This document shows, in pieces, positions 305 through 64,000 of a DNA stretch of 64,000 bases. The first letter of the stretch is position 1. Each line of letters starts with the position of its first letter. The notes beneath the pieces were generated by a model. That model was not told the origin of the DNA, did no database searches, and worked only from the letters and a program-made list of their open reading frames with translations. The position numbers and the translations under genes are program-made. This DNA is from Octopus vulgaris (lineage: Eukaryota). The DNA lies in assembly GCA_951406725.2 (NCBI GenBank), contig OX597830.1, positions 558,001 to 622,000 on the forward strand. The letters are read 5' to 3'.

Positions 305-709
305 GTAGAATACATCGACCCCAGTGGGGAAGAGCGTACTTAACTTATGAACTGGCGAATTCACTCGACCCCAATACTCAACCAGTGCTTATTTTATCGA
401 CGCCGAAACGATGCAACGCAAAGTCAACCACGGTTGAATTTGAACTCAGGAGGTATATGTAGAAGTGCCGCCAAAGCACGTTTGTCCGAAGTCCTAACCA
501 TTCTACCACTCGCTGCTTTCGTTAAACTAAATCCTTTCCACTATAGATACAAAGTCCCAAGTTTTGGGAGAGAGTACAAGTCGATTACTTAATTTATCAA
601 CTCCCGAAAGGATGACAGGCAAAGTTGACCTCAGCAGAATTTGAACTCAGAAGGTATAGGTAGAAGAAATACCCCCAAAGCATTTTTGTCCGAAATGCTA
701 ACGATTCTC
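305..709 (-). mobile_element. Tandem degenerate fragments of tRNA-derived SINE family A
   Basis: Repeated ATCGACCCCA...AAAGTCAACC/AAAGTTGACC...AATTTGAACTCAG blocks, homologous to the better copy at 710-945. Confidence 0.7.
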
Positions 710-945
710 ATTTCTTTATTGCCCGCAAGGGGCCAAACATAGAGGGGGGTCAAACATGGATTGAGACAAAGGGATTAAGTCAATTACATCGACCTCAGTG
801 TGTAACTGGTACTTAATTAATCGACCCCGAAAGGATGAAAGGCAAAGTCGACCTCGGCTGAATTTGAACTCAGAACGCAGCGGCAGACGAGATACCACGA
901 AGCAGTTCACCCTGTGTGCTAACGATTCTGCCTGCTCGCTGCCTT
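710..945 (-). mobile_element. SINE family A, near full length (tRNA head, CTTTCATCCTTTCGGGGTCGAT central domain, GCCCCTTG..GG.AATAAAGAAAT tail)
   Basis: Minus strand reads AGGCAGAATCGTTAGC (A-box-like) ... GAGTTCAAATTC (B-box-like) ... GCCTTTCATCCTTTCGGGGTCGAT ... GGCCCCTTGCGGGCAATAAAGAAAT; many copies elsewhere in the window. Confidence 0.85.
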
Positions 946-3478: not shown

Positions 3479-3480
<2 letters not shown>

Positions 3481-4296
3481 CGACTGCTCAACCACTCAAA
3501 TGTGGAAGTCATATATCTCGACTTTGCAAAGGCTTTTGATAAAGTCGACCATGGAATGATATGTCACAAACTGCGTGATCTTGGCATAGTTGGAAAATTG
3601 GGAGAATGGCTTCATGACTTTCTGAAGGATAGAAGTCAGGTGGTAGTAGCCACTTCCATTAACACGCAAATAGCCACTTTTACTATTGCTCTCAGCTATG
3701 GTCATCATCCAGTGTCAAGTTAATCACAGAACTTGAGGCGATCCAACGAAGCTACACGAAGAAGATAGCCTCTGTGCAGTATATAAGCTATTGGGAAAGA
3801 CTCAAAAGATTGAAACTCTATTCCTTAGAGCGTAGGCGAGAAAGATATGCCATAATATACATCTGGAAGATTCTGGAAGGACTTGTCCCAAACTTTGGCA
3901 TCGAGAGTTACGCAAATGCCAGAACTGGGCGCCACTGCACAGTGCCAAGGGCTCCAAATATGCCATCAAGATGTAGGACAAGATACTGTGATAGCCTGGG
4001 CTTCCGAGGCCCACAGCTCTTCAATATCCTCCCGAAGAACCTGAGAGACCTGCACGGGGTGGATGCAGATGTCTTTAAAATAAAACTGGATCTCTTCTTG
4101 TCAGGTGTCCCAGATGAACCAACTTCACCACAGGAGGTTCAGATGAGGGCAGCTGCATCGAACTCTCTCATGCACCAAATGGCAATTGCTAAAAAGCATT
4201 CGTGAAGTAAAATCATGTAGCAACACCAAATGGCGGTGCCCCAGCATGGCCACAACTTGTGAGCTGAAACTAGATAAAAATAAATAAAAAATAAAT
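3479..4296 (+). mobile_element. 5'-truncated, internally deleted copy of the CR1-group LINE at 5101-8402
   Basis: Close match to about 7099-7300 and 7778-8380; encodes [15 protein letters not shown] and YWERLKRLKLYSLERRRER; lacks the segment with GVPQG and YADD. Confidence 0.92.
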
Positions 4297-4299
4297 ATG

Positions 4300-4376
<77 letters not shown>

Positions 4377-5101: not shown

Positions 5102-5362
5102 GGGGCACCACCTGCCCCAAAGCGGAGGTACGCAGATGTTGTGCGCGTCACAAACAGCCAACATGATGTTGTCGAAAGAGCAGCTGCTGAGCAACAAACT
5201 TTTTTGTGCATGGCACAAAAGATTGTACAGCAGCTGACCTGGCTTCATCAAACCCAAGCCCGCAGGTGGGACTACCCACTATATACCAGACCACCACAGC
5301 AAACAGACACAGGATGGACACCGCCGGCAACAACGTACACCTCACCTCGATACTCCTACTGA
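5102..5362 (+). pseudogene. C-terminal remnant of LINE ORF1, overlapping ORF2
   Basis: Open frame from the microsatellite junction, GAPPAPKRRYADVVRV...QQTFLC...; YAxVV-type motif is common in non-LTR ORF1; no start codon. Confidence 0.6.
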
Positions 5363-8310
5363 ACATCAGAGGACTGCAAACACTCAGTAACAGGACAAAG
5401 ATCCCATTCCTGAGAGACTTTGTTGCATGCAATCAAGCCATATGCATAGCACTTACAGAAACGCACCTGAAACCGGACATAGCAGATGCGGAGTTACACA
5501 TACCACAGTATGCCGTACTACGGACCGGCAGGAAAGAAAGGAGTCATGGAGGTGTTGCTATGTACATCCGTGAGGACCTCACACCCCAGGTCCTCTTGTC
5601 ATACTCAAACTCGGTGTGTGACACACTAATTGTACATATTAGGCAACTTGATGTAGTTGTGTGTGCTACATATCGCCCTCCAGATGCCCCAAGCCATGTG
5701 GGCAAGTTTGAAGACTGCCTTATAAAAATAGAAGAAATTCTAACCACATTAGAACAACACATAGGTGTGCTTCTTATGGGAGACTTCAATCTGCCCAATG
5801 TCAGATGGCCCGAGGGCCTTTCTCTCCCAGGAATGACAAGATGTGAACGAGGACAGGCGAGGTCCCTCCTGAACCTCACCAACACCCTGTACATGGAGCA
5901 GGTAATACTCCAACCAACCAGGGCAGGTAACACACTGGATCTCTGCTTCACAAATGACATGGATCTCATCCATAATGTGAAAGTGACACCGACACTACTC
6001 TCGGATCACAACATGATAGAGCTGACCATGTACGGGCCAAAAGAGAGCACGGACATGCAGCCTACAAGAAACCCTCAAAATCTTTCCAGCTTGAACTACC
6101 ATAAGGCAAACTGGAAACAAATTGAGAAAGAGATCCTCAAACAAAACTGGCCTAAATGTCTCTCCTCGCCAGACATCGACGTGAAACTTCAACAATTCAT
6201 GTCTGTAATGCAAGCCATATGCTACAAATGTGTCCCAGAGAGAAAGGCCACTGTACACAAGAACAAAATCCCCAGAGAGAGGAAAATTTTAATGAGACGG
6301 CGTACGAAATTTTCAAATCGCCTAAACAAACAGATTGAAAGCAGTGAAAAGTCCCGCCTAAAAATAAAACTGTTGGAAATCGAAAAATGTCTGCAACTCT
6401 CCCATGAAAAAGAAAGAGCAGACAAAGAAGCCTGGGCTATAGAAAACATAAAATCTAACCCCAGAGCTTTCTACAGGTATGCCAAAGAAACAGCTACAGT
6501 GCACTGTAGAATAGGGCCACTCCTCGAAAAGGATGGCACACTTACAGGAAAACCAATGAGGGTAAGTGAAATACTGAATGAGCAATTCAAGAGTGTTTTC
6601 ACTCCACCCCTTGGGCATCTCCAAATCACCAATCCAACTGACTTTTTTACCACTGCAGATATAAAATCAGAGGCGGCGACGATAGATTACATCGATATAA
6701 AGGAAGACGATGTAACCAAGGCTATAGATGAAATGAAAACAGACTCAGCTACTGGCCCCGATGGATTCCCGGCAATCCTCCTAAAAGCATGTAAGAGAGT
6801 CCTAGCAAGACCACTGCAGTTCCTCTTTCAGAGCTTCCTTGCAGCTGGCAAACTTCCAGGAAAACTGAAGGAAGGTAAAATATGCCCCATTCATAAAGGA
6901 GGTAGCAGAGCGGAAGCCAAGAACTATAGACCTATCTCTCTGACCTCACACATCAGCAAGGTCATGGAACGAATAGTCAGAAGGAAGCTGATCACCTTCC
7001 TTGAAGAGAATGACTTGCTGCCCGACACCCAACATAGTTTCCGACCAGGGAGAAGCTGTTTAACTCAGCTCCTACAACACTATGACTGGGTGCTGAAACG
7101 GCTGCTCAACCACTCAAATGTGGAAGTGATATATCTCGACTTTGCAAAGGCCTTTGATAAAGTCGATCATGGAATGATATGTCACAAACTGCGTGATCTC
7201 AACATAGTTGGAAAACTGGGAGAATGGCTTCATGACTTTCTGAAGGATAGAAGTCAGGTGGTGGTAGCCAATGGGGCCACCTCCATTAACACACAAATAG
7301 TGAGCGGTGTTCCGCAGGGCACTGTTCTGGGACCACTACTGTTCATAATGGCCCTCTCAGACATGCCCTCAGCCACGCAGAGAGCCACGATCACAAGTTA
7401 TGCAGATGATACAAAAGTTTCACAGGCAATACAGAACCCTGAGGACACTAAACACCTGCAATGTGAGCTGGACGAAATATACAAGTGGGCTGAAAAGAAT
7501 AGCATGCAGTTCAATGCTGGAAAGTTTCAAGCTTTATACTATCAGCATGCAAAACTGAATGCAATACCCAATGAATACACTGGACCCGGAGGGATTGCAA
7601 TCCCAGAGGCACAATCAGTGCGTGACCTGGGTATTCACATGAGTGATGACGCGACCTTTCATGTACATGTTGCTAAACTGACAATGAAATGTAGACGGCT
7701 GGCTGGCTGGATTCTTAGAACCTTTAGAACAAGAGAACAAGAAACCATGATGGTCCTCTGGAAGACACTTGTCCTAAGCCACTTTGACTATTGCTCTCAG
7801 CTATGGTCACCATCCAGTGTCAAGTTGATCACAGAACTTGAGGCGATCCAACGAAGCTACACAAAGAAGATAGCCTCTATGCAGAATGTAAGCTACTGGG
7901 AAAGACTCAAGAGATTAAAATTATATTCCCTGGAGCGTAGGCGGGAAAGATATGCCATAATATACATCTGGAAGATCCTGGAGGGAAGTGTCCTGAACTT
8001 TGGCATCGAGAGTTACGCAAATGCCAGAACTGGGCGCCACTGCGTGGTGCCTAGGACTCCAAACCTGCCATCAAGATGTAGGACAAGATACTGTGATAGC
8101 CTGGGCTTCCGAGGCCCACAGCTCTTCAATATCCTCCCGAAGAACCTGAGAGACCTGCATGGGGTGGATACAGATGTCTTTAAAATGAAGCTGGATCTCT
8201 TCCTGTCAGGTGTCCCAGATGAACCAACTTCACGGCAGGAGGGGCAGATGAGGGCAGCTGCATCGAACTCTCTCATGCACCAAATAGCAGCTGCTAGAAA
8301 GCCTCCATGA
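5206..8310 (+). CDS. LINE ORF2: apurinic-like endonuclease plus reverse transcriptase (first ATG at 5314)
   Basis: Uninterrupted 1034 aa. APE motifs LLNIRGL, LTETHL, GGVAMY, YRPP, GDFNLP, LDL, SDH; RT motifs [41 protein letters not shown]; CR1-type C-terminus YWERLK.L.LYSLERRR. Confidence 0.96.
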   Translation: MHGTKDCTAADLASSNPSPQVGLPTIYQTTTANRHRMDTAGNNVHLTSILLLNIRGLQTLSNRTKIPFLRDFVACNQAICIALTETHLKPDIADAELHIPQYAVLRTGRKERSHGGVAMYIREDLTPQVLLSYSNSVCDTLIVHIRQLDVVVCATYRPPDAPSHVGKFEDCLIKIEEILTTLEQHIGVLLMGDFNLPNVRWPEGLSLPGMTRCERGQARSLLNLTNTLYMEQVILQPTRAGNTLDLCFTNDMDLIHNVKVTPTLLSDHNMIELTMYGPKESTDMQPTRNPQNLSSLNYHKANWKQIEKEILKQNWPKCLSSPDIDVKLQQFMSVMQAICYKCVPERKATVHKNKIPRERKILMRRRTKFSNRLNKQIESSEKSRLKIKLLEIEKCLQLSHEKERADKEAWAIENIKSNPRAFYRYAKETATVHCRIGPLLEKDGTLTGKPMRVSEILNEQFKSVFTPPLGHLQITNPTDFFTTADIKSEAATIDYIDIKEDDVTKAIDEMKTDSATGPDGFPAILLKACKRVLARPLQFLFQSFLAAGKLPGKLKEGKICPIHKGGSRAEAKNYRPISLTSHISKVMERIVRRKLITFLEENDLLPDTQHSFRPGRSCLTQLLQHYDWVLKRLLNHSNVEVIYLDFAKAFDKVDHGMICHKLRDLNIVGKLGEWLHDFLKDRSQVVVANGATSINTQIVSGVPQGTVLGPLLFIMALSDMPSATQRATITSYADDTKVSQAIQNPEDTKHLQCELDEIYKWAEKNSMQFNAGKFQALYYQHAKLNAIPNEYTGPGGIAIPEAQSVRDLGIHMSDDATFHVHVAKLTMKCRRLAGWILRTFRTREQETMMVLWKTLVLSHFDYCSQLWSPSSVKLITELEAIQRSYTKKIASMQNVSYWERLKRLKLYSLERRRERYAIIYIWKILEGSVLNFGIESYANARTGRHCVVPRTPNLPSRCRTRYCDSLGFRGPQLFNILPKNLRDLHGVDTDVFKMKLDLFLSGVPDEPTSRQEGQMRAAASNSLMHQIAAARKPP

Positions 8311-13070: not shown

Positions 13071-13905
13071 AATAATATATGCGTGTGTACTTGTATCAAT
13101 CAAATTTATAATTAAAGAATTTAGGTTTAGAACGTGGGCATTAAATGCAGTATCCAATCCTTGTTTCAAGGTAAGTCCCAGGTACTGTGCCTGCACAGCA
13201 CGTTAACCACTTATGGCTACCAGGCATCATCAGCGATACGATGCGTTCGTCGTTGGACCTATGTCCGGAATTCCGAGGTGCCCGTTGGGTATATTTTAAT
13301 TGATTGATGCGGAAGACGGAGTTTAAGTAGAAGTTGTATTTAGCCCAACAGTCGTTTCGGCTACCTTCTGCACTGCTCCCTAGTTGATGGGGAACGATGT
13401 AATGACATCGGACGCATGGCACAGTTCAGGGAACCACATCAGACAACATGATATCCTTCAAAATGTATAAGATTTACATTTTGTCCCAAGTTAGATGCTG
13501 GTGGTATTATGTAGTTGCTAGTAAATTACACCCATTGGTGAAGTGAGGATACTTGTAGTCAGGAAGTGGTTGATAACAACAGGAAATACAAAGAATCTAA
13601 TGTAAATGGGTGTGTGTGCTTATACTCGGGGTCAGGACATTTGATGGTTGGCTTTGACAGTCAAGCATGACGGCGTGGTGAAGAATTTGGTGGGAATGTG
13701 ATGTCCACCTTTAGACTTGATGGCTGCTTACAGCTACATACACACAGGCACACGCTCATACACATATATACATACATATTTGCGTGTGTGCATGTATATA
13801 TACACACACACATACGTGCACTCACCCCACCCCCACACACATTTATATACATACATACATACATACATACATACACACGCGTACATACACGCAAGTATAT
13901 ATCTG

Positions 13906-14050
13906 TTTCTTTATTACCTACAAGGGGCTAAACATAGAGGGGACAGATAAGGACAGACAGACGGATTAAGTCGATTACATCGCCCCAAGTGCGTAATTGT
14001 TACTTGATTTATCGACCCCGAAAGGATGAAAGGCAAAGTCGACCTCGGCC
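13906..14050 (-). mobile_element. SINE family A, 3' half
   Basis: Minus strand central domain plus tail AGCCCCTTGTAGGTAATAAAGAAA. Confidence 0.85.
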
Positions 14051-14149
14051 GACTCGACCACGCATATATATATATATATTCTTCAGACATTTAGGCATGC
14101 ATCGTATGTGGTTGCATGTTGATCACTAAAAGAGCATATAAAAATGTAT

Positions 14150-24519: not shown

Positions 24520-24560
<41 letters not shown>

Positions 24561-24566
<6 letters not shown>

Positions 24567-24964
24567 GTAAGTAGCTTGCTAACCAGCCACATGGTTCCGG
24601 GTTCAGTCCCACTGCGTGGCATCTTGGGCAAGTGTCTTCTGCTATAGCCCCGGGCCAACCAATGCCTTGTGAGTGGATTTGGTAGACGGAAACTGAAAGA
24701 AGCCTGTCGTATATATGTATATATATATATATGTATGTGTGTGTATGTTTGTGTGTCAGTGTTTGTCCCCCTAGCATTGCTTGACAACCGATGCTGGTGT
24801 TTTTACGTCCCCGTCAACTAGCGGTTCGGCAAAAGAGACCGATAGAATAAGTACTGGGCTTACAAAGAATAGGTTCCGGGGTTGATTTGCTCGACTAAAG
24901 GCGGTGCTCCAGCATGGCCGCAGTCAAATGACTGAAACAAATAAAAGAGTAAAGAGTAAAAGAG
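24561..24964 (+). mobile_element. SINE family C (tRNA head, CORE-like CTTGGGCAAGT block, internal microsatellite, CR1-LINE-derived tail)
   Basis: TGTGTGGTAAG (A box), GGTTCAGTCCC (B box), CTTGGGCAAGTG, tail GGCGGTGCTCCAGCATGGCCGCAG...CTGAAAC. Confidence 0.87.
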
Positions 24965-25250
24965 TATATATATATGTAATATGTATATATATATATATAT
25001 AAGAGTAGAAGAGATAAATGTAATATGTATATGTATACATATATATATACACACACATACACAGACACCCAGATATATGAACGTATGTATATATGGACAT
25101 CTTCATTCAGTTTGTAATTACCTTTCTAACATTTCTAACACGATCTGCATTGAATGCATACGCTTTGGTGAAAAATAAAGAACAAATATAACGATAATAA
25201 TATTAATAATAATAACAACTACAAAACAAATAATAATAATAATAATAATA

Positions 25251-26350: not shown

Positions 26351-27103
26351 GTAAACCATGCTAGAAGGCCGCACCCCTGCAGTGGATATCTGTGCAGAAT
26401 AAAATTAGTGTAGAATAGATTTTGCATGAGCAAGCAATCAGAGTAAAGCGATCTAGGGTCATGAAATTGGTAGAACAAGTAGAAAACCCTGTGATGGCGA
26501 TGTGCAACTTTTTATCAGCTCAGATTTGTCTAGGCACAAACCTATTTAGGGATACTCTTCAACCAACTAGAATGCATAACACGTCTCATGTGAACTAACC
26601 ATCTCTAATACCCGATTCTAGTTGTCAATTTTTATTGTATTATTATATTTTCGTCATAGGATGGTAATGATCATCTCATCTCCCCGCAAACTGATTCATG
26701 AGGGAGGCAGACTCTTTTATACATCGGGTATAGTTTATCTAGGATAACATTCTATAAAGTATAATTCTTTTTATAACCTAATAGCTGATGATTTGAGAAA
26801 ATATGGTTGTTATTTCTAGCAGCTTTCGTCGTAGTTGGTGGGATGTAACATTTCTGCACACACATGTACATATGTATGTATAGATGGATGATCACGGATA
26901 TATATATATAAAGGAATGTGAGTACTGTGCAAGTACTTAATGGTTTGTCGGCGACTCCTAAGAGAATATGCACCCAGGTTCCTGCCCCAGTATACAGCAT
27001 AGGTCAACAGCTATATAAAGCAGCCATAAATAGTCGGAGTACCTAATCTGCATATTTTTGTATTTGATGGCTCGTCATTGTGCTTAAAGAATTACTATTT
27101 GAT

Positions 27104-27496
27104 AGACGCAGCTGTGGCTGGGTAGTAAGAAGCTTGCTTCCAAACGACATGGTTCATGCTTCAGTCCCACTGCGTGGCACCTTGGGCAAGTGTCTTCTAC
27201 TATAGCCTCGGGACGACCAAAGCAGTGTTAGTAGATTTGTGGTAGACGGAAACGAAAAGAAGCCTGTCGTATATATATCTATATATATACTCTTACTCTT
27301 TACTCTTTTACTTGTTTCAGTCATTTGACTGCGGCCATGCTGGAGCATCGCCTTTAGTCGAGCAAATCGACCCCGGAACTTATTCTTTGTAAGCCTATTC
27401 TATCGGTCTCTTTTGCCGAACCGCTAAGTGACGGGGACGTAAACACACCAGCATCGGTTATCAAGCAATGCTAGGGGGACAAACACAGACACACAA

Positions 27497-27543
<47 letters not shown>

Positions 27544-27911
27544 TACGACAGGCTTCTTTCAGTTTCCGTCCACCAAATCCACTCACAAGGCATTGGTCGG
27601 CCCGGGGCTATAGCAGAAGACACTTGCCCAAGATGCCACGCAGTGGGACTGAACCCGGAACCATGTGGTTGGTTAGCAAGCTACTTACCACACAGCCACT
27701 CCTGCGCCTATATATATATATATATATATATATAATCTGTGTGTCTGTCTGTGTGTGTATTTGTCCCCACCACCACTTGAAACCAATGTTGGTTTGTTTA
27801 CGTCCCCATAACCTACTTATTCTATCAAGAGACTGATAGAATAAATACCAGGCTTAAAACATACAACCTGGGGTCGATTTATTCAACTAAAAATTCTAAG
27901 CGGTGCCCCAG
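27104..27911 (+). mobile_element. Older SINE C copy split into 27104-27288 and about 27736-27911 by a nested insertion
   Basis: 5' half up to the internal (TA)n; 3' half (TACGTCCCC...GATAGAATAAATACC...GGGGTCGATTT...GCGGTGCCCCAG) resumes after the nested copy. Confidence 0.75.
27289..27709 (-). mobile_element. Full-length SINE C, inverted, nested in the older copy
   Basis: Minus strand GGCGCAGGAGTGGCTGTGTGGTAAG...tail GTAAAAGAGTAAAGAGTAAGAG; very similar to 24561-24964. Confidence 0.88.
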
Positions 27912-35559: not shown

Positions 35560-36035
35560 TGATTTCAAGATTTGGGCACAAGGTATTTCGGGGCAGGGGC
35601 AAGTCATTTATATCGACCCCATTGCTCAACTGCTACTAATTTTATTGACCCCGAAAGCTTGAAAGACAAAACCGAGACCGGTTTTGGGAGAAGGTCAGCA
35701 ATTCAATAATGGTGGTCAGTCGATTATATAGACACCACTACTCAAGTGGTGCCTATTTTATCAAGCCCGAAAGGATGAACGGCCAAATCGACCTTGGCGG
35801 AATTTGAACCAAGAAAGTGAAGACATGCTACTAAGCATTTTGTCCTATGTGCTAAGGGTTCTTTTCTACTTTTGGGCACAAGGCCCGAAATTTTGGGAGA
35901 GTGGGCCAGAGGATTAGCTCGACCCCAATATGCAATTGGTACTTAATTTATGGACCCCAAAAGGATGAAAGGCAAAGTCGACCTGGGCGGAATTAGAACT
36001 CAGAACGTAGCGACAGATGAAATACCGCTAAGCTT
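35560..36035 (-). mobile_element. Cluster of three tandem SINE A fragments
   Basis: Three ATCGACCCC/CCCGAAAG(G)ATGAA blocks, the last with GGCAAAGTCGACCTGGGCGGAATTAGAACTCAGAACG. Confidence 0.75.
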
Positions 36036-36094
36036 TTTACTTTGGACGATATATGATAAAACCAGTGAAAATATGGAAATTGCAAGAACTGTTG

Positions 36095-42724: not shown

Positions 42725-42942
42725 CTGGCAGAAACGTTAACACGCCGGGCGAAATGATTTGCGATATTTCGTCTGCCGCTACGTTCTGAGTTCAAATTCC
42801 GCCGAGGTCGATTTTGCCTTTCATCCTTTCGGGGTCGATCAAATAAGTACCAGTTACGCACTGGGGTCGATGTAATCGACTTAATCCATTTGTCTGTCCT
42901 TGTTTGTCCCTTCTGTGTTTAGCCCCTTGTGTGTAGTAAAGA

Positions 42943-42945
<3 letters not shown>
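42725..42945 (+). mobile_element. SINE family A, near full length, followed by (AAT)n
   Basis: CTGGCAGAAACGTTAAC...GAGTTCAAATTCC...CTTTCATCCTTTCGGGGTCGAT...AGCCCCTTGTGTGTAGTAAAGAAAT. Confidence 0.87.
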
Positions 42946-55284: not shown

Positions 55285-56157
55285 CGTGCGTTGTGTGTGA
55301 GAATGTACGTTGTGTGTGTGTGTGAAACTGCAGTGTGTGTGCGTGTTGTGTTATGTGTGTGACTGTGCGTTGCGAGTGTGTATGTGTGTGTGGGGGGATG
55401 TACGTTTAGCGTGTTTGTCTGTGACTGTTCGTTATGCATTCCTGTGTGTGTGAATGCGTTGTGTGTACGTATGTTTGTGAAAGATGTTATGTGAGTGTGT
55501 GTAAATGTGTGTTGCCAATGTGTATGTGTGTATCAATGTACGTTGTGTGTGTGTGTGCATTTGTATGAATGACATAAATCATTCGCTATTGCTGACGACG
55601 TAAAGCCAATCGCTCTAATTGGCGACGAATCTCAAAGTTTAGCTGATGAGATGAGATTATGTTCGGAGATGTTGTGTTGCGCGGTTGCTGTGATATCCTG
55701 CACAGAAATAAAGTAACAAGATTGCATTTAGAGAGCAACATTACAAAAGCTTCCGTAAAGGATTTGGTAGAATCCTTAAAGTGTGTGAATTGTGATATTT
55801 AGTCACAGTTAGTTACGTTTCAAGTTCAAATCCGGTCCACATCATCTTCGAAAAGCATTATTCACATATCGATTAATTAAAGTAGCACTCAAATATTGGA
55901 TTCGATTTTCATCGACTAACTTACCCGTCAACTAAAATGTCGATGTAGTAATGTTGGAAATACAAATCAGTTGGAAAACTGGTCTAATAGGTAACAATGA
56001 AACATTGATGAATTCTTTTGTCAACCAATAAGCCTTGCCTGGGGCCAATGACAATAATATTTTTTGTTGAGTTATAAGTTTTGAATAATATAAATTAGTA
56101 TTGTAAAAATAACTAAAAGGAAATTGTATTTCACCATTTAATGATATTATTATCTTC

Positions 56158-56327
56158 TTAGAGGCATTTCGCCGGTCTTTACGTTCTGAGTTCAAATTCC
56201 ACCGAGGTCTAATTTCCCTTTTCATCATTTCGGGGTCGATGAAATGAGTACCAGTTACGCACTGGGGTTGTTATAATCGACTAGCCCCTCCTACAAAATT
56301 TCAGGCCTTGTGCCTTTAGTAGAAAGG

Positions 56328-56328
<1 letters not shown>
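56158..56328 (+). mobile_element. SINE family A with the alternative tail (AAAATTTCAGGCCTTGTGCCTTTAGTAGAAAGG)
   Basis: Central domain followed by a different tail, then (ATT)n. Confidence 0.8.
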
Positions 56329-56389
<61 letters not shown>

Positions 56390-58109
56390 CGCCACAGCAG
56401 GAGGTTCGTTTTTGGAGCGCTGTAAGTTTATGTTAATTCACTCGTTTTAAAAGGTTCTATACTGTATTTTATTGGTTAAATCGTTTTGCAAGCCAGCTGC
56501 TCCCCTGGGTGGGGCTGGCATTTGTTAACAAAAGCCCTATTTTGTGGGGAGATACAAACATTTTTTTTCAAATTTCTTGAAGATGGCGACGAAATGCGAG
56601 AAAGAAGAAAGAAGGTGGTACGGCAATTTGCCCGAAGACTTCCCATTCCACCCCACCATGATTGGCATTAGACAGCAGGAAGATGAAGAAGAAGTGAAGA
56701 GTCAAGAAAACCATGGATAACTTCCAGAAACCCCTAGCCTGGTAGTGCTATATGGGGCTGCCGGTTCGATATAAGCTCTACAAGCTCGGGTGTGCAGTCA
56801 GTCGGGCTTGTCCGAGCTACACACAGCTATGAAACCGTTCTGCATGCTCTCGTACAGTGAACTAAGGTGACACGCTTGGTTCCAACCTTATTGCAGCCCC
56901 TATTTGTTCAATGTAATTCTTAAGATTTTTTACTCACTGTTCCCAGGGCTCCGACAATTATTGGTACTACTACCACCTTTTCCAGCGACCACAAGTGACC
57001 GAGTGACAACATACTCTGCAAGGTTCTTCGTGCAAATCCCGCCGTGCGATCGAACACAAGTCATCCTCCCAAGAGTGGATAAAATTATTTTCAATTCCAT
57101 ATTAGGTAGCTTGTAATCTGTAATCTCCCCAAAACGTTAAGTTTCGTACATATGGCAGAAATCATTCCAAGTATATACATCATATATAGTTTCAATTACA
57201 TATGATGGTTGAGGGCTTTCTATACAGTTATATGACTATATATTTTACAGACTCTTCTATTTCTCTACAAGAATAACGCACAGGATGGCCAATCCAGGCT
57301 AATATCTTTAGTGTTTCTATTTGTCTCATTCTGTGGTAATCATAGTTCCCACACTTTGTAGTCCGACTTTCAGGGATATTTTCTGTATAAATTGTATACA
57401 ACTACATATCGGCATCTTTCCTTTACGGCATCCTATTGAAGAAAAAAAAACTATTGTTTTGCAATTAATGATACCATCAAATCATTTGCTTAATATTTTT
57501 TCAGAATCTTATATTTTCTAAAACGTCTTCTATTCAGGGTTAAAGACTATAGAATAAATGAAATAAAGAATAATAAATAAAATAAAATGAAAATACATAT
57601 ATTTTAAAATTATATACCAATTTCTCGGGAAAAGATTCATATAACTAAAGATATATAAAATGATTCACCTCGAAATTTAGGTTTCGAAATGTCAAAATTT
57701 ATTTTGGTGACATTTTTATTCCAATTTGTTCTCAATTTGGAAATGTTTGGAATGTCATATTTAATGACATTACTCTCTCTAGTTACATCCATATTTAACT
57801 GTGTTTGATTTCAGTGAAAAAAAAAAAATTGTTGGAAACAATACACGAAATTAAATAACCCTAGAACGAAGAAGAAGCAGAATTTAAGTTTACTGCGCTG
57901 TTGATCACTGTGCTATGAGTTCAAATTTTAAGATAACCGTTCTCTTTTCTTTCATGAACAGAGTTGTTTGTTTTAGTCGCCATGACAAACCAAAACCACT
58001 AACAACAAAAACGAATACGCTCTGCTGCACGCACTCCAGCAACAGGAAGGAGTTCCAGATGATGTAGTACAAATTTGTCTGAAACTAGCAAATTTTGAAA
58101 AATTATTAT

Positions 58110-58290
58110 AATCCTTTCTACTAAAGGCACAAGGCCTGAAATTTGTGGGGAGGGGATTAGTCAATTATATCAACCCCTGTGTTTCACTGGTACTTAATCT
58201 ATCGACCCAAAAAGGATGAAAGGCAAAGTCGACTTCAGCGGAATTTGAGCTCAGTACGTAGCGACGGGCGAAATACCGCTAAGCATTTTT
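58110..58290 (-). mobile_element. SINE family A with the alternative tail
   Basis: CCTTTCTACTAAAGGCACAAGGCCTGAAATT...AAAGGATGAAAGGCAAAGTCGAC. Confidence 0.8.
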
Positions 58291-60680: not shown

Positions 60681-60785
60681 GTCTATGTATGTATACCTAT
60701 ATATCTGTATATCTATCTATATATTTATATATATATATATATATACGAAAAAACCCTCCAGGCTACATCCCGAAAATTCATTTCT

Positions 60786-61531
60786 TTGCCGAATTTCTAC
60801 AATGTTTACGGCGATTCGTTTTTATATCTTGATTTTTTATTTTTCATGCAATTTACGCATGCTTGCACGCTTGGTGAACACAGTTCACGTCAAACAGCTG
60901 ACTGAGTAAAGTTCACTATTCAATGCATGGGATAAGGCCTCAACAAACACATTATCGATTTTTGCACTTGCAAGATGAATTTCGGAACAGAAATATATCA
61001 TTCTCATTTTCCATATTTCTCCCCCTATTTGTCTCTGATGACGGAATATTCCATACTTGGGGATATCCCAGAAACAGTTGTAAGATTTTGAATTTCTTCC
61101 TATAATAATATTATATATGTTCCCCTTCCCTCAATGTTTGATGCCCTGTTTCACAATTATATATATATATATATATATAAAACTCAACTTGCATGTCTGT
61201 ATTGTATCTGTGTGTGTGTCGGTGTGTTTAACTTCCCGGCACATCTCTTCCTAGCCAACAAATCGTAGAACCACCAAAAATGGGTCACTTAAAGTTTAGG
61301 CGAATGAAAATTGAACTGCGCTATTTCTGTTCCGAAATTCATCTTGCAAGTGCAAAAATCGATAATGTGTTTGTTTAGGCCTTATCCCATGCATTGAATA
61401 GTGAACTTTACTCAGTCAGCTGTTTGACGTGAACTGTGTTCACCACGAGTGCAAGCATGCGTAAATTGCACGAAAAATAAAAAATCAAGAAATAAAAACG
61501 AATCGCCGTAAACATTGTAGAAATTCGGCAA
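60786..61531. repeat. Inverted repeat with 210-bp arms (60786-60995 / 61322-61531), about 6 mismatches by eye
   Basis: TTGCCGAATTTCTACAATGTTTACGGCGATTCG...TTCGGAACAGAAATA versus TATTTCTGTTCCGAA...CGAATCGCCGTAAACATTGTAGAAATTCGGCAA. Confidence 0.95.
61031..61087 (+). ncRNA. Minimal type I hammerhead-like motif inside the inverted-repeat spacer
   Basis: GTCT-CTGATGA-c-GGAATATTCC-atactt-GGGGATATCC-ca-GAAA-CAGTTG-TA-AGAT; near-palindromic stem III ACAGTTGT, GUA triplet; base of stem II imperfect. Confidence 0.62.
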
Positions 61532-63281
61532 CGAATTTTGAAGGAGTCGGTCGTGTTTTTTTACGCTCGTAAAATTCGGTAAAAAAGAACAAAAGGCGTT
61601 GTTGTTGTTGTGGAAATTCTGAACGGCGTTGACGCGGTTTCGCGTTTCGCTCGTTCAGCGCGTTACACTTTTTCTGTTTTGGCGGCCGTTTTCGGTCTGT
61701 CAGACAGAAGGAAATGGACTATGAGTCTCTAACAGACTTGTCCACGACGGATGAGGAACTGGAACAGGCAATTGCAGTGAAGCTGATGGAGGAAAAGGCT
61801 GGAGTTTTTGAGTCTTTATCAGACTTGCCTATGTCTGAGAAGGAGCTAGAAATGGCAGCAAGGAAATTGGAAGACAAGCTGAGTTATACCTATGCCGGTG
61901 TAACCAAGAAGGCGGAAGAGAAAGGGGTCGACATGGCCAAGTTGCCAAGTTACCAGAAATACATGAAAAAGGAAAGCGGTGAGGTGGAACTATCACCGAC
62001 ACCCAGGAGAAAGGAATGGTATGATAAGAGGACCATTATTTACAGGGTGTTCGCAAACGAAAGGAAGAGGGTAGAAGTTGTAACCATGGAATGGATAGAG
62101 GAAGCCCTGCGAAGAACTGAGGAGGAAATAAATTTTCTGACTCGAGGATCCAAGTACGGGACCGTAGTTGTGCACTTTAAAACTGAATCGGCAGCGAGGA
62201 AGATGGCAGCGAAGGCGGTGAAGTCGGAAAAGGTAACACTGTTACCTACGTATTTAAACAGGAGGATTACACGAATAAGGGTGGAGGGAGTGCCACCAAA
62301 CGTGGAGGCAGAATGGATTGTGGCGGCTGTGATCAGCGGCCACGAGGACGAAGTGGATATTCTCCATGCCTCGGTTAAGTCCGAGGGCTGGAGAGGCGTA
62401 ACAGTGGAGCTGAACGTACAGGCAGAGACCGAGGTACTGGTGGACCTGACGGAAAGCATCAGACTGGGAGAAGTGATCATGAGAGTGTGGGTGGAGGGCA
62501 GGGCTCCACGCTGTTACAAGTGTGGCCTGAGGGGTCACATAAGAGCCTTCTGCCCTCCCCCAGGGAAAGAAATGGATTCCGAACCAGAGAGAGAAGCAGA
62601 AACCAGAGGAGAAGGAAACAGAGGAAGAGAATACACAGAAATGGAAGGAAGCTGGAAGTAAGAGGAAGAGAAGAATATGTGGAAAAAAAGAAAATAATAT
62701 GGAACTCCAATCTACCCCAAAACCTCCCACACCCTCTGAGTCCCACCCTATCCATGCAGACATTGAACCCACCCGCTCCCCACCACCAACAAAACAAAAA
62801 AAAAAAAAGAATACACACACACAAGATATTGAAATCGAACCCAGGCCGTACATTTGTACTATGACTGAACAGAGGGAAGTTAAAAGTCTAATGGAAGAGT
62901 ATAAACGGTATGATGTTGGAGAGACTAGGTATGCTGTGATTGAAAAGAAGAACATAGGTGAGTTTATGGGGAGGTGTGAAAGGGAGAATTGGGAGGTGAA
63001 AGATATAAGAATGAGCGATGAATTCGTGGAAAATATGAATGAGTATTTCGGAGTAAGAATGGATATGGAATTTATTCGTATTGGCAAAGAACATTCAAGT
63101 GACTATGAAAAACAAAGGACAGGTAAGTGATGCTGACGGACGGGGCCGTTGGTATCGCTTTCATTTTATCATTTTTCGTTTAACAATACATGTTCATAAA
63201 GTTTAATTATAATGTTCTATGTCCCCATGTTTTGTTATGTCCGCCATTCTTCGTAGCCCCTTAGTGGGTAATAAAGAAATC
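61512..63281 (+). mobile_element. 1770-bp unit 1 of a tandem ORF1-only non-LTR-like element (first 20 bp are a candidate target duplication)
   Basis: Repeats from 63282; about 200-nt leader, one ORF1-like coding region, 150-nt 3' UTR ending AGCCCCTTAGTGGGTAATAAAGAAATC; no RT or endonuclease motifs. Confidence 0.85.
61714..63130 (+). CDS. Tx1/L1-type ORF1 (gag-like) protein of about 470 aa, split by one frameshift into 61714-62661 and a frame ending at 63130
   Basis: RRM-like RITRIRVEGVPPNVEAEWIV and zinc knuckle CYKCGLRGHIRAFC (CX2CX4HX4C); the +1 frame is open from about 62543 and reads QKPEEKETEEENTQKWKEAGSKRKRR...MELQSTPKPP... to TGA at 63130. Confidence 0.8.
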
Positions 63282-64000
63282 ACATTGTAGAAATTCGGCA
63301 ACGAATTTTGAAGGAGTCGGTCGTGTTTTTTTACGCTCGTAAAATTCGGTAAAAAAGAACAAAAGGCGTTGTTGTTGTTGTGGAAATTCTGAACGGCGTT
63401 GACGCGGTTTCGCGTTTCGCTCGTTCAGCGCGTTACACTTTTTCTGTTTTGGCGGCCGTTTTCGGTCTGTCAGACAGAAGGAAATGGACTATGAGTCTCT
63501 AACAGACTTGTCCACGACAGATGAGGAACTGGAACAGGCAATTGCAGTGAAGCTGATGGAGAAAAGGCTGGAGTTTTCGAGTCTTTATCAGACTTGCCTA
63601 TGTCTGAGAAGGAGCTAGAAATGGCAGCAAGGAAATTGGAAGACAAGCTGAGTTATACCTATGCCGGTGTAACCAAGAAGGCGGAAGAGAAAGGGGTCGA
63701 CATGGCCAAGTTGCCAAGTTACCAGAAATACATGAAAAAGGAAAGCGGTGAGGTGGAACTATCACCGACACCCAGGAGAAAAGAATGGTATGATAAGAGG
63801 ACCATTGTTTACAGGGTGTTCGCAAACGAAAGGAAGAGGGTAGAAGTTGTAACCATGGAATGGATAGAGGAAGCCCTGCGAAGAACTGAGGAGGAAATAA
63901 ATTTTCTGACTCGAGGATCCAAGTACGGGACCGTAGTTGTGCACTTTAAAAGTGAATCTGCAGCGAGGAAGATGGCAGCGAAGGCGGTGAAGTCGGAAAA
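63282..64000 (+). mobile_element. Unit 2 of the tandem ORF1-only element (runs off the window)
   Basis: Leader identical to unit 1; coding part from ATG 63484 has 6 substitutions and a 1-nt deletion near 63560. Confidence 0.9.

Follow-up and report, generated by a model that had tools for sequence, protein, structure and literature searches.

A 27-nt 3′ tail shared by an ORF1-only LINE derivative and a SINE in the genome of Octopus vulgaris

Several described systems resemble parts of the locus reported here. HAL1 (half-L1) of mammals is a non-autonomous derivative of a long interspersed nuclear element (LINE) that encodes only the ORF1 protein and forms a family of its own (PMC5753468). Stringent 3′ tails are known in plants and a green alga for certain L1-clade elements, which form pairs with short interspersed nuclear elements (SINEs) in maize and sorghum and in Chlamydomonas (PMC3747384), and bivalve SINEs carry CR1, CR1-Zenon, L2 or Nimb tails (PMC11481361). 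Xenopus Tx1 resides in Tx1D, and the crocodilian Tx1-Mar and SINEU-3 reside in Mariner-N4, where tandem copies sandwich a target site duplication (TSD; PMC4494074). Octopus OR1 and OR2 are CORE-SINEs (Ohshima and Okada 1994, cited via PMC4824008 and PMC4758252), for which the available parts of the two citing papers name no partner LINE. Drosophila HeT-A is a further relevant case (PMC9659126). The DNA analyzed here is a 64,000-nucleotide stretch of the O. vulgaris genome (GenBank assembly GCA_951406725.2, contig OX597830.1, forward-strand positions 558,001 to 622,000), hereafter the window, and all coordinates are positions within it. The window contains a non-LTR retroelement (LTR, long terminal repeat) that encodes a LINE-type ORF1 without an endonuclease or reverse transcriptase (RT), and SINE copies that end in the same tail.

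The 3′ end of the ORF1-only element recurs almost unchanged in three SINE copies, termed tail-A SINEs. Near-identical ends are located at 63254–63280 (forward strand) in the element and at 710 (reverse), 13905/6 (reverse) and 42945 (forward) in the SINEs. The element terminates with a hairpin followed by AATAAAGAAAT. The following features are involved.

61532–63280, forward strand: unit 1, the ORF1-only non-LTR retroelement, with a ~180-nt 5′ untranslated region (UTR), ORF1 and a 150-nt 3′ UTR; its 5′ border is approximate (61532–61570)
63254–63280, forward strand: shared 3′ tail of the element, 27 nt, reading TAGCCCCTTAGTGGGTAATAAAGAAAT
63256–63259 paired with 63266–63269, forward strand: tail hairpin of the element, with a 4-bp stem and a 6-nt loop
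63270–63275, forward strand: AATAAA in the element tail, followed by GAAAT and by no poly(A)
63247–63251 with 63274–63278, forward strand: longer stem of the element tail, from folding prediction
710–945, reverse strand: tail-A SINE with an intact hairpin, flanked by a 13-bp direct repeat and directly followed by an older SINE copy
13905–14052, reverse strand: 5′-truncated tail-A SINE with the innermost stem pair broken
42727–42945, forward strand: tail-A SINE followed by (AAT)n, with one stem pair broken and AGTAAA in place of AATAAA

The tail sharing between the element and the tail-A SINEs is real and exceeds both chance and the effect of the AATAAA motif. The 150-nt 3′ UTR of the element aligns to the three tail-A SINE ends with scores of 44, 44 and 48, which were equalled by none of 2000 dinucleotide shuffles. 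Three SINE ends with an alternative tail (tail B) and the end of a CR1-like LINE gave scores at the shuffle level against the same 3′ UTR (429 to 1882 of 2000). Because AATAAA is frequent in the window, all A[AG]TAAA sites were ranked as a poly(A)-signal control, in which the 16 nt preceding each of 249 sites (the element's own site counted) were compared with the hairpin segment of the element. The closest sites are exactly the three tail-A SINEs, at edit distances of 2, 2 and 4, and the rest lie at a distance of at least 6. A preliminary description of the window, made from its letters alone, had claimed that the ORF1-only element and this SINE family end alike; the shuffles and the site ranking uphold the claim, and the four tail strings quoted there were all located in the window.

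The 4-bp GCCC/GGGY stem is intact in the element and in the SINE copy at 710, and one pair is broken in each of the copies at 13905 and 42945. The preliminary description, in which most copies can form a GCCC/GGG(C/T) stem-loop, is therefore somewhat generous. Beside the intact stem of the element and the 710 copy, a longer stem that includes the AAUAAAGAA end is also predicted, with pair probabilities of 0.5–0.9. Among contigs from public runs, the 3′ terminus falls at differing positions from 63275 to 63285, and several of these contigs suggest that the end may extend to GAAATCA (63282).

These contigs were obtained from four public runs (X1, X3, X6 and X11) and aligned to positions 61190–63325, with depths that are not copy numbers. 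At least half of the words of the element are found in 20 of 24 listed runs from eight studies, one of which is possibly the source of the window itself; none of the listed runs that contain it is recorded as RNA. In all four aligned runs, the depth is even along the unit up to 63277, and the last tail bin reaches 0.72 (X1), 1.35 (X6), 1.04 (X3) and 1.02 (X11) of the median depth of the body. In X11, a single 1793-nt contig represents the whole ~1.76 kb unit in circularly permuted form; it includes the tail and has no space for an ORF2. The element thus belongs to a multi-copy, ORF1-only family of ~1.75 kb that carries the tail throughout. The tail is a trait of the family at large and was not captured locally from a SINE. 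Local capture was one of two outcomes that the preliminary description had named as overturning its proposal, and the coverage of the tail bin in all four runs contradicts it. Its term "ORF1-only" is likewise borne out by the whole-unit contig without ORF2 and by Pfam searches without an endonuclease or RT, with the qualification that the ORF1 of the window copy is split by a 2-nt indel.

A HMMER search identified 362 relatives of ORF1 at E ≤ 0.001, and the 11 named relatives among 20 looked up by cluster all originate from Octopus sinensis, O. vulgaris, O. bimaculoides or Argonauta hians. A profile search added 266 ORF1 relatives among 7999 candidates, mostly on long contigs. A single-sequence word search detected no ORF1 relative among 2039 candidates, although the HMMER search did find relatives. 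No ORF1 fused into a longer protein (1508–4305 amino acids (aa)) was observed among 7995 candidates, which is a weak indication. When sets of 24, 90 and 40 relatives were scanned with Pfam (at E ≤ 0.01, 1e-4 and 0.5, respectively; the best five matches in the two larger sets), no endonuclease or RT family was listed; this absence from the relatives' frames is expected if ORF2 lies in a frame of its own.

The relatives include ORF1 proteins of 600–800 aa (P0152–P0269), which represent a large expansion with clusters of up to 159 members on long ENA contigs. Four gene models (P0067, P0081, P0090 and P0135) join pieces of the family ORF1 to other sequence, comprising LDL-receptor repeats, C2H2 fingers and WD40 in three of them, and are probably annotation chimeras. 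Loose contig ends at the zinc knuckle (62479–62562) and at 63202 (80 nt ahead of the tail) indicate diverged sister families with only those parts in common. One of these sister families could be the autonomous partner of the element.

The ORF1 of the window copy is distributed over two frames.

61714–62661, forward strand: N-terminal ORF1 frame of 315 aa, with an acidic N-terminus, RRM folds at ~aa 96–183 and 184–264 and a CCHC knuckle at aa 266–281
62543–63130, forward strand: C-terminal ORF1 frame, with a charged, proline-rich linker and then a small α/β domain of unassigned fold

The 2-nt indel at 62585 splits the ORF1 of the window copy relative to most family copies. The difference from the window copy accounts for nearly all of the depth in X6, X3 and X11 and about 40% in X1, and in the copies that carry it, the two frames fuse into one ORF of ~470 codons. 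A structure model of the 315-aa frame (pLDDT 83.7) contains two RRM-like domains and the CCHC knuckle. The La RRM matches ORF1 structurally with Z-scores of 9.4–9.5 and a root-mean-square deviation of 2.5 (80–81 aligned), and the Foldseek list is headed by tandem-RRM proteins. On both frames, Pfam recognized a weak CCHC knuckle and nothing else, and a PDB sequence search with ORF1 matched chiefly zinc knuckles and low-complexity stretches. The RRM-RRM-CCHC order defines a type I LINE ORF1 (PMC4120745), and the modeled fold assigns the ORF1 of the element to this type, with two predicted RRMs and a CCHC knuckle.

The closest relative has a post-knuckle part similar to the downstream frame (phmmer E of 2.5e-11 in a low-complexity stretch; BLAST E of 3e-4). 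The C-terminal domain was not linked to the C-termini of relatives by profile, nor to P0009 by BLAST, and its single-sequence model (pLDDT 61.6) found a best fold match of only Z 3.3. Among the 40 variants listed, 29 fall inside ORF1, and 13 of these are synonymous. In the N-terminal frame, the synonymous share is 9 of 19 listed variants, compared with an expected share of 0.23–0.29 (p of 0.02–0.07), which gives a weak sign that ORF1 may be under purifying selection. Internally deleted variants of the acidic N-terminus were observed in X6 (61719–61783 and 61770–61876); the former deletion is deep (1217) and may define a subfamily.

The element is inserted in the right arm of a foldback element and is followed by a second unit in a head-to-tail arrangement.

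60746–60995, reverse strand: left arm of the foldback element, with a (TA)n border and the uninterrupted arm end visible
61322–61535, forward strand: right arm, 97% identical to the left arm over 214 nt, with its outer end interrupted by the ORF1-only element
61512–61531, forward strand: TSD-like 20-bp arm stretch just before unit 1, which recurs at 63282–63301
63282–63301, forward strand: second copy of the 20-bp stretch, between the unit 1 tail and the unit 2 head
63302–64000, forward strand: unit 2, cut by the window end, with 6 substitutions and one 1-nt gap relative to unit 1 over 720 nt

Positions 61512–62231 are repeated at 63282–64000 with 99% identity at a 1770-nt period. Of the six substitutions between the units, five (61809, 62013, 62038, 62183 and 62190) have in unit 2 a letter that is a listed family variant; unit 2 is therefore no fresh duplicate of unit 1. 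Beyond the junction in the window, the contigs contain at least five further tail-to-head junctions, with 5′ starts at 61555, 61560, 62998 (X1), 61649 (X3) and 61571 (X3 and X11). Among the junctions listed, the 3′ ends all fall within 63275–63280. The tail and the next head are separated by 1–7 nt of non-poly(A) sequence in the junctions with listed letters, and the spacer of the 61571 junction, which lies outside those letters, comprises 55. Varied 5′ starts behind one fixed 3′ end fit repeated retrotransposition and do not fit simple duplication.

The two foldback arms align over 60782–60995 and 61322–61535. An empty arm end, seen as a loose end at 61535, is represented by 21 contigs in X1 and by one each in X3 and X11. 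In one X1 contig, tail letters, possibly from the element or from a SINE, are joined to arm sequence at offset 61518. The data suggest a target preference for the foldback arm. In X1, X6 and X11, the 5′ and 3′ halves of the element have nearly equal depths. The ratio of element depth to foldback depth varies approximately tenfold between runs. The foldback element (60746–61535) is itself very abundant in all four runs and might represent a non-autonomous DNA transposon that targets TA. Elsewhere in the window, a 460-nt repeat lies in inverted orientation at 24521–24974 and 27102–27891 (90%), with palindromic matches inside it. The upstream flank of the array is an ordinary repeat-rich region, and the downstream side passes the window end.

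About a dozen SINE fragments are found in the window. One SINE body underlies three copies with tail A and at least three with tail B; it has a conserved middle as well as A- and B-box-like motifs.

35860–36037 (reverse strand), 56150–56335 (forward strand) and 58105–58288 (reverse strand): tail-B SINEs, which end in (ATT)n and have the same body as the tail-A copies

Tail B does not match the tail of the element, and the presence of two unrelated tails on one body fits tail swapping. ARAGORN and Rfam recognized nothing in the SINE head, where the A- and B-box-like motifs are visible by alignment only. The SINE is putatively of the Octopus OR1/OR2 CORE-SINE type. Three SINE copies form a head-to-tail row at 305–945 (reverse strand), of which the youngest has tail A; this copy may have inserted into an older SINE because its 13-bp direct repeat is SINE-head sequence. 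SINEs constitute 11.6% of the O. vulgaris assembly (PMC13282606), and the SINE expansion is octopus-specific (PMC8967140).

The window includes one intact RT frame of 998 aa (5314–8310, forward strand), which contains an endonuclease and an RT (Pfam Exo_endo_phos_2 and RVT_1), is CR1-like by eye and is not preceded by an ORF1 within 400 nt upstream. A second, internally deleted copy (3479–4300) is ~90% alike. This element was rejected as the partner, as it ends in (ATCA)n and scores at the shuffle level against the tail. L1-Tx1 (13 families, 421 insertions), CR1, RTE and Dong-R4 elements are recently active in O. vulgaris (PMC13282606), and O. sinensis has 16 unclassified I-superfamily elements (PMC10294476). 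The RRM/CCHC variants of ORF1 in non-mammalian animals fit Tx1 (PMC5203782), and type I ORF1 is also found in the I, Jockey, R1, Tad1, plant L1 and L2 clades (PMC4120745). The partner suggested in the preliminary description, an L1/Tx1-like LINE, is compatible with the ORF1 type and the insertion pattern, and the ORF1 type also occurs in those other clades. The partner LINE most likely belongs to the Tx1/L1 clade; an I-superfamily element is a distinctly less likely source, and another clade accounts for the remainder. Stringent tail recognition, which the preliminary description regarded as notable for such a partner, is less unusual in view of the L1-clade precedents in plants and the alga (PMC3747384).

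As a non-autonomous, multi-copy LINE derivative of young age in an octopod, the element keeps a 5′ UTR, a type I ORF1 (as modeled) and the last part of a LINE 3′ UTR and has lost the endonuclease and RT. The best reading of the locus, to which we assign a probability of about 0.68, is that this HAL1-like half-LINE and the OR-type SINE both use the RT of one unseen LINE, probably Tx1-like, via their common tail. The RNA of the element would encode its own ORF1 protein, which would package that RNA, and the ORF2 protein would be borrowed from the autonomous LINE. The SINE would have acquired its last ~27 nt from the partner LINE or the half-LINE, most simply by a template switch. The partner RT would bind the small hairpin with AAUAAAGAAAU and start copying at or just behind it without a long poly(A), as the fixed ends and the missing poly(A) suggest. 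Stringent recognition of this kind is suggested by the shared sequence and the missing poly(A), and not by covariation. New copies would frequently insert at an earlier copy, immediately behind one or in the foldback arm and so produce head-to-tail arrays, which may grow by adjacent insertion or template jumping and perhaps by later amplification at the DNA level. The three-member system of the preliminary description, composed of an unseen LINE, an ORF1-only element and a SINE with one RT recognition tail, thus stands in its tail sharing and its ORF1-only family, both observed; a common use of one RT would be the step that unites them.

Several results weigh against this reading. The common stretch is only ~27 nt long, 6 nt of which are the poly(A) signal, and bivalve SINE–LINE tail homologies span 35–61 bp (PMC11481361). 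The shared part is short because the likeness fades without the terminal nucleotides: when the last 11 nt are removed, an unanchored alignment is marginal (195, 180 and 35 of 2000 shuffles), and no significant likeness is seen upstream of the last 27 nt (328, 927 and 133 of 2000). In the stem, a pair is broken in two of the three SINE copies, and the covariation check that the preliminary description had proposed found compensatory changes in 0 of 4 pairs among the four sequences available, with a single one-sided G-U/G-C change. The folding energies are no better than those of shuffles (z-scores of −1.4 to +0.5). Among the junctions listed, each is represented by one contig (for 61571, by one contig in each of two runs), and the SINE copies of the window lie at sites other than the insertion site of the element. 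No RT-bearing element with the tail was found in the window or in the collections scanned, and the tail patterns had no match in JGI metagenome, IMG/VR or GTDB contigs. An ORF1 protein scan of metagenome contigs gave 166 pattern matches, none of which was confirmed; these empty metagenome, viral and prokaryote scans say little because the collections are mostly non-animal. The points that favor Tx1, namely the ORF1 type, the ZCCHC3-like leads, AATAAA and the insertion pattern, are not diagnostic, and the absence of poly(A) is more usual in other clades. No Pfam family links ORF1 to Tx1, and ZCCHC3-like Atlas clusters (0.88–0.89) are leads only, under our assumption that ZCCHC3 is related to Tx1 ORF1.

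Four other explanations were considered. The tail of the founder may have been SINE-derived, if an ORF1 transcript extended into a tail-A SINE or changed template to one and the resulting chimera was amplified, in which case the ORF1 and the RT that moves the element may stem from different LINEs. The abundance of SINEs (11.6% of the assembly, PMC13282606, and about a dozen fragments in the window), the end of the likeness ~27–40 nt from the terminus and the movement of ORF1s among LINE lineages (PMC4120745) agree with this origin. It is nevertheless unlikely, as the element contains no SINE core or head sequence, the SINE body also occurs with tail B, so that tail A itself had another source, and one tail-reading RT would still be required. 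Slightly less likely again is a split LINE, in which an old ORF1-only lineage provides, in trans, the RNA chaperone for an RT element that lacks ORF1 and ends in the same hairpin tail, and both drive the tail-A SINE and build site-targeted arrays, so that the element is a helper and not a parasite alone. LINEs of the RTE, Dong-R4 and CR1 groups often lack ORF1, which favors such a division. Families of all three are active in octopus (PMC13282606). Among the contig joints and loose ends listed, none indicates a longer parent in which ORF1 is shared at ≥82%, but 393 more loose ends lie outside those listed. Four relatives are on contigs only 0.3–1.5 kb longer than the ORF (597 aa/2090 bp, 603/2209, 861/3483 and 740/3761); however, short contigs are common in any case, and the 861-aa protein has a cluster-mate whose contig, at 6159 bp, offers room for an ORF2. 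The RT element in the window also lacks the shared tail, and we know of no split LINE in animals.

The tail could instead be an inherited 3′-end processing signal, composed of the hairpin and AATAAA, with a relaxed RT and with satellite-like arrays formed mainly by unequal exchange. AATAAA lies inside the match, the structure is weak and covariation is absent, and the near-equal 5′ and 3′ depths (X1, X6 and X11) and the ~tenfold differing element-to-foldback ratio are what array expansion gives. This explanation ranks somewhat below the split LINE, since poly(A) follows the tail at none of the junctions seen, the 5′ starts of the junctions differ, unit 2 is no fresh copy of unit 1, and AATAAA is useless as a poly(A) signal to a SINE transcribed by polymerase III. 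A coincidental likeness, or the capture of a SINE end in a single local event, draws on the shortness of the match and is highly improbable: none of 2000 shuffles equals the scores, the three nearest of 249 sites are the SINEs and the tail is family-wide in four runs, which refutes it as far as the data go. The shared use of one LINE's RT by the half-LINE and the SINE remains the preferred reading.

The literature search yielded no report on the octopus family, nor on any ORF1-only element whose tail lacks poly(A) and recurs in a SINE; subscription papers, Repbase and Dfam lay outside the search. A text search for the tail strings themselves matched no paper. No tail-like match was obtained in one supplementary file of PMC9115989, which apparently contains no sequence library, or in two of PMC10294476 (file 25 of which comprises bivalve LINE consensus sequences), in searches that covered few of the 3′ ends. 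A 27-nt tail shared with an ORF1-encoding, LINE-derived family provides a handle toward the RT behind an abundant octopus SINE. Should that RT prove to be of the Tx1 clade, an L1/Tx1-type enzyme of an animal would be reading a sequence tail that lacks poly(A); the stringent L1-clade cases cited here are from plants and a green alga (PMC3747384). The family is also a natural test of what an ORF1 does when it is kept without its RT.

ORF1-only LINE derivatives, shared SINE–LINE tails and Tx1-type targeting of DNA transposons are each already known, and their combination in octopus is undescribed in the literature searched. The SINE resembles OR1 and OR2 in its putatively tRNA-like head with A- and B-box-like motifs, its conserved middle, its two alternative tails and its octopod genome, and its identity with either is putative. 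As in the stringent SINE–LINE pairs, a 3′ end with a small stem-loop is common to both partners and tails are swapped on one SINE body; unlike in those pairs, the tail-sharing octopus element has no RT and no compensatory changes were seen among its four tail sequences. With Tx1-Mar/SINEU and Tx1/Tx1D, the octopus locus shares the insertion in a non-autonomous DNA transposon (a possible one in octopus), a TSD or TSD-like repeat between tandem copies and a Tx1-type LINE, probable in octopus, as the proposed mover of a non-autonomous partner (PMC4494074). SINEU, however, has a small nuclear RNA (snRNA) head and a poly(A) tail and encodes nothing, and the SINEU-1 tail is unlike any LINE known to that source. 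The link in the SINEU system is target preference, whereas that in octopus is the shared tail. HeT-A is likewise an ORF1-only, non-autonomous element with head-to-tail arrays and 5′-truncated copies. Its telomeric location, kilobase-scale 3′ UTR and poly(A) set it apart from the octopus element, which has a 3′ UTR of 150 nt and no poly(A) and whose array begins inside an interspersed repeat. Like HAL1, the octopus element is ORF1-only and forms its own family. It differs in its predicted type I ORF1 (RRM-RRM-CCHC), compared with the coiled-coil/RRM/CTD (type II) ORF1 of mammalian L1, and in its lack of poly(A), its tail in common with a SINE and its tandem arrays. With a LINE ORF1, no endonuclease or RT and amplification in that form, the octopus element is HAL1-like in kind and, without a type II ORF1, is distinct from mammalian HAL1 proper.

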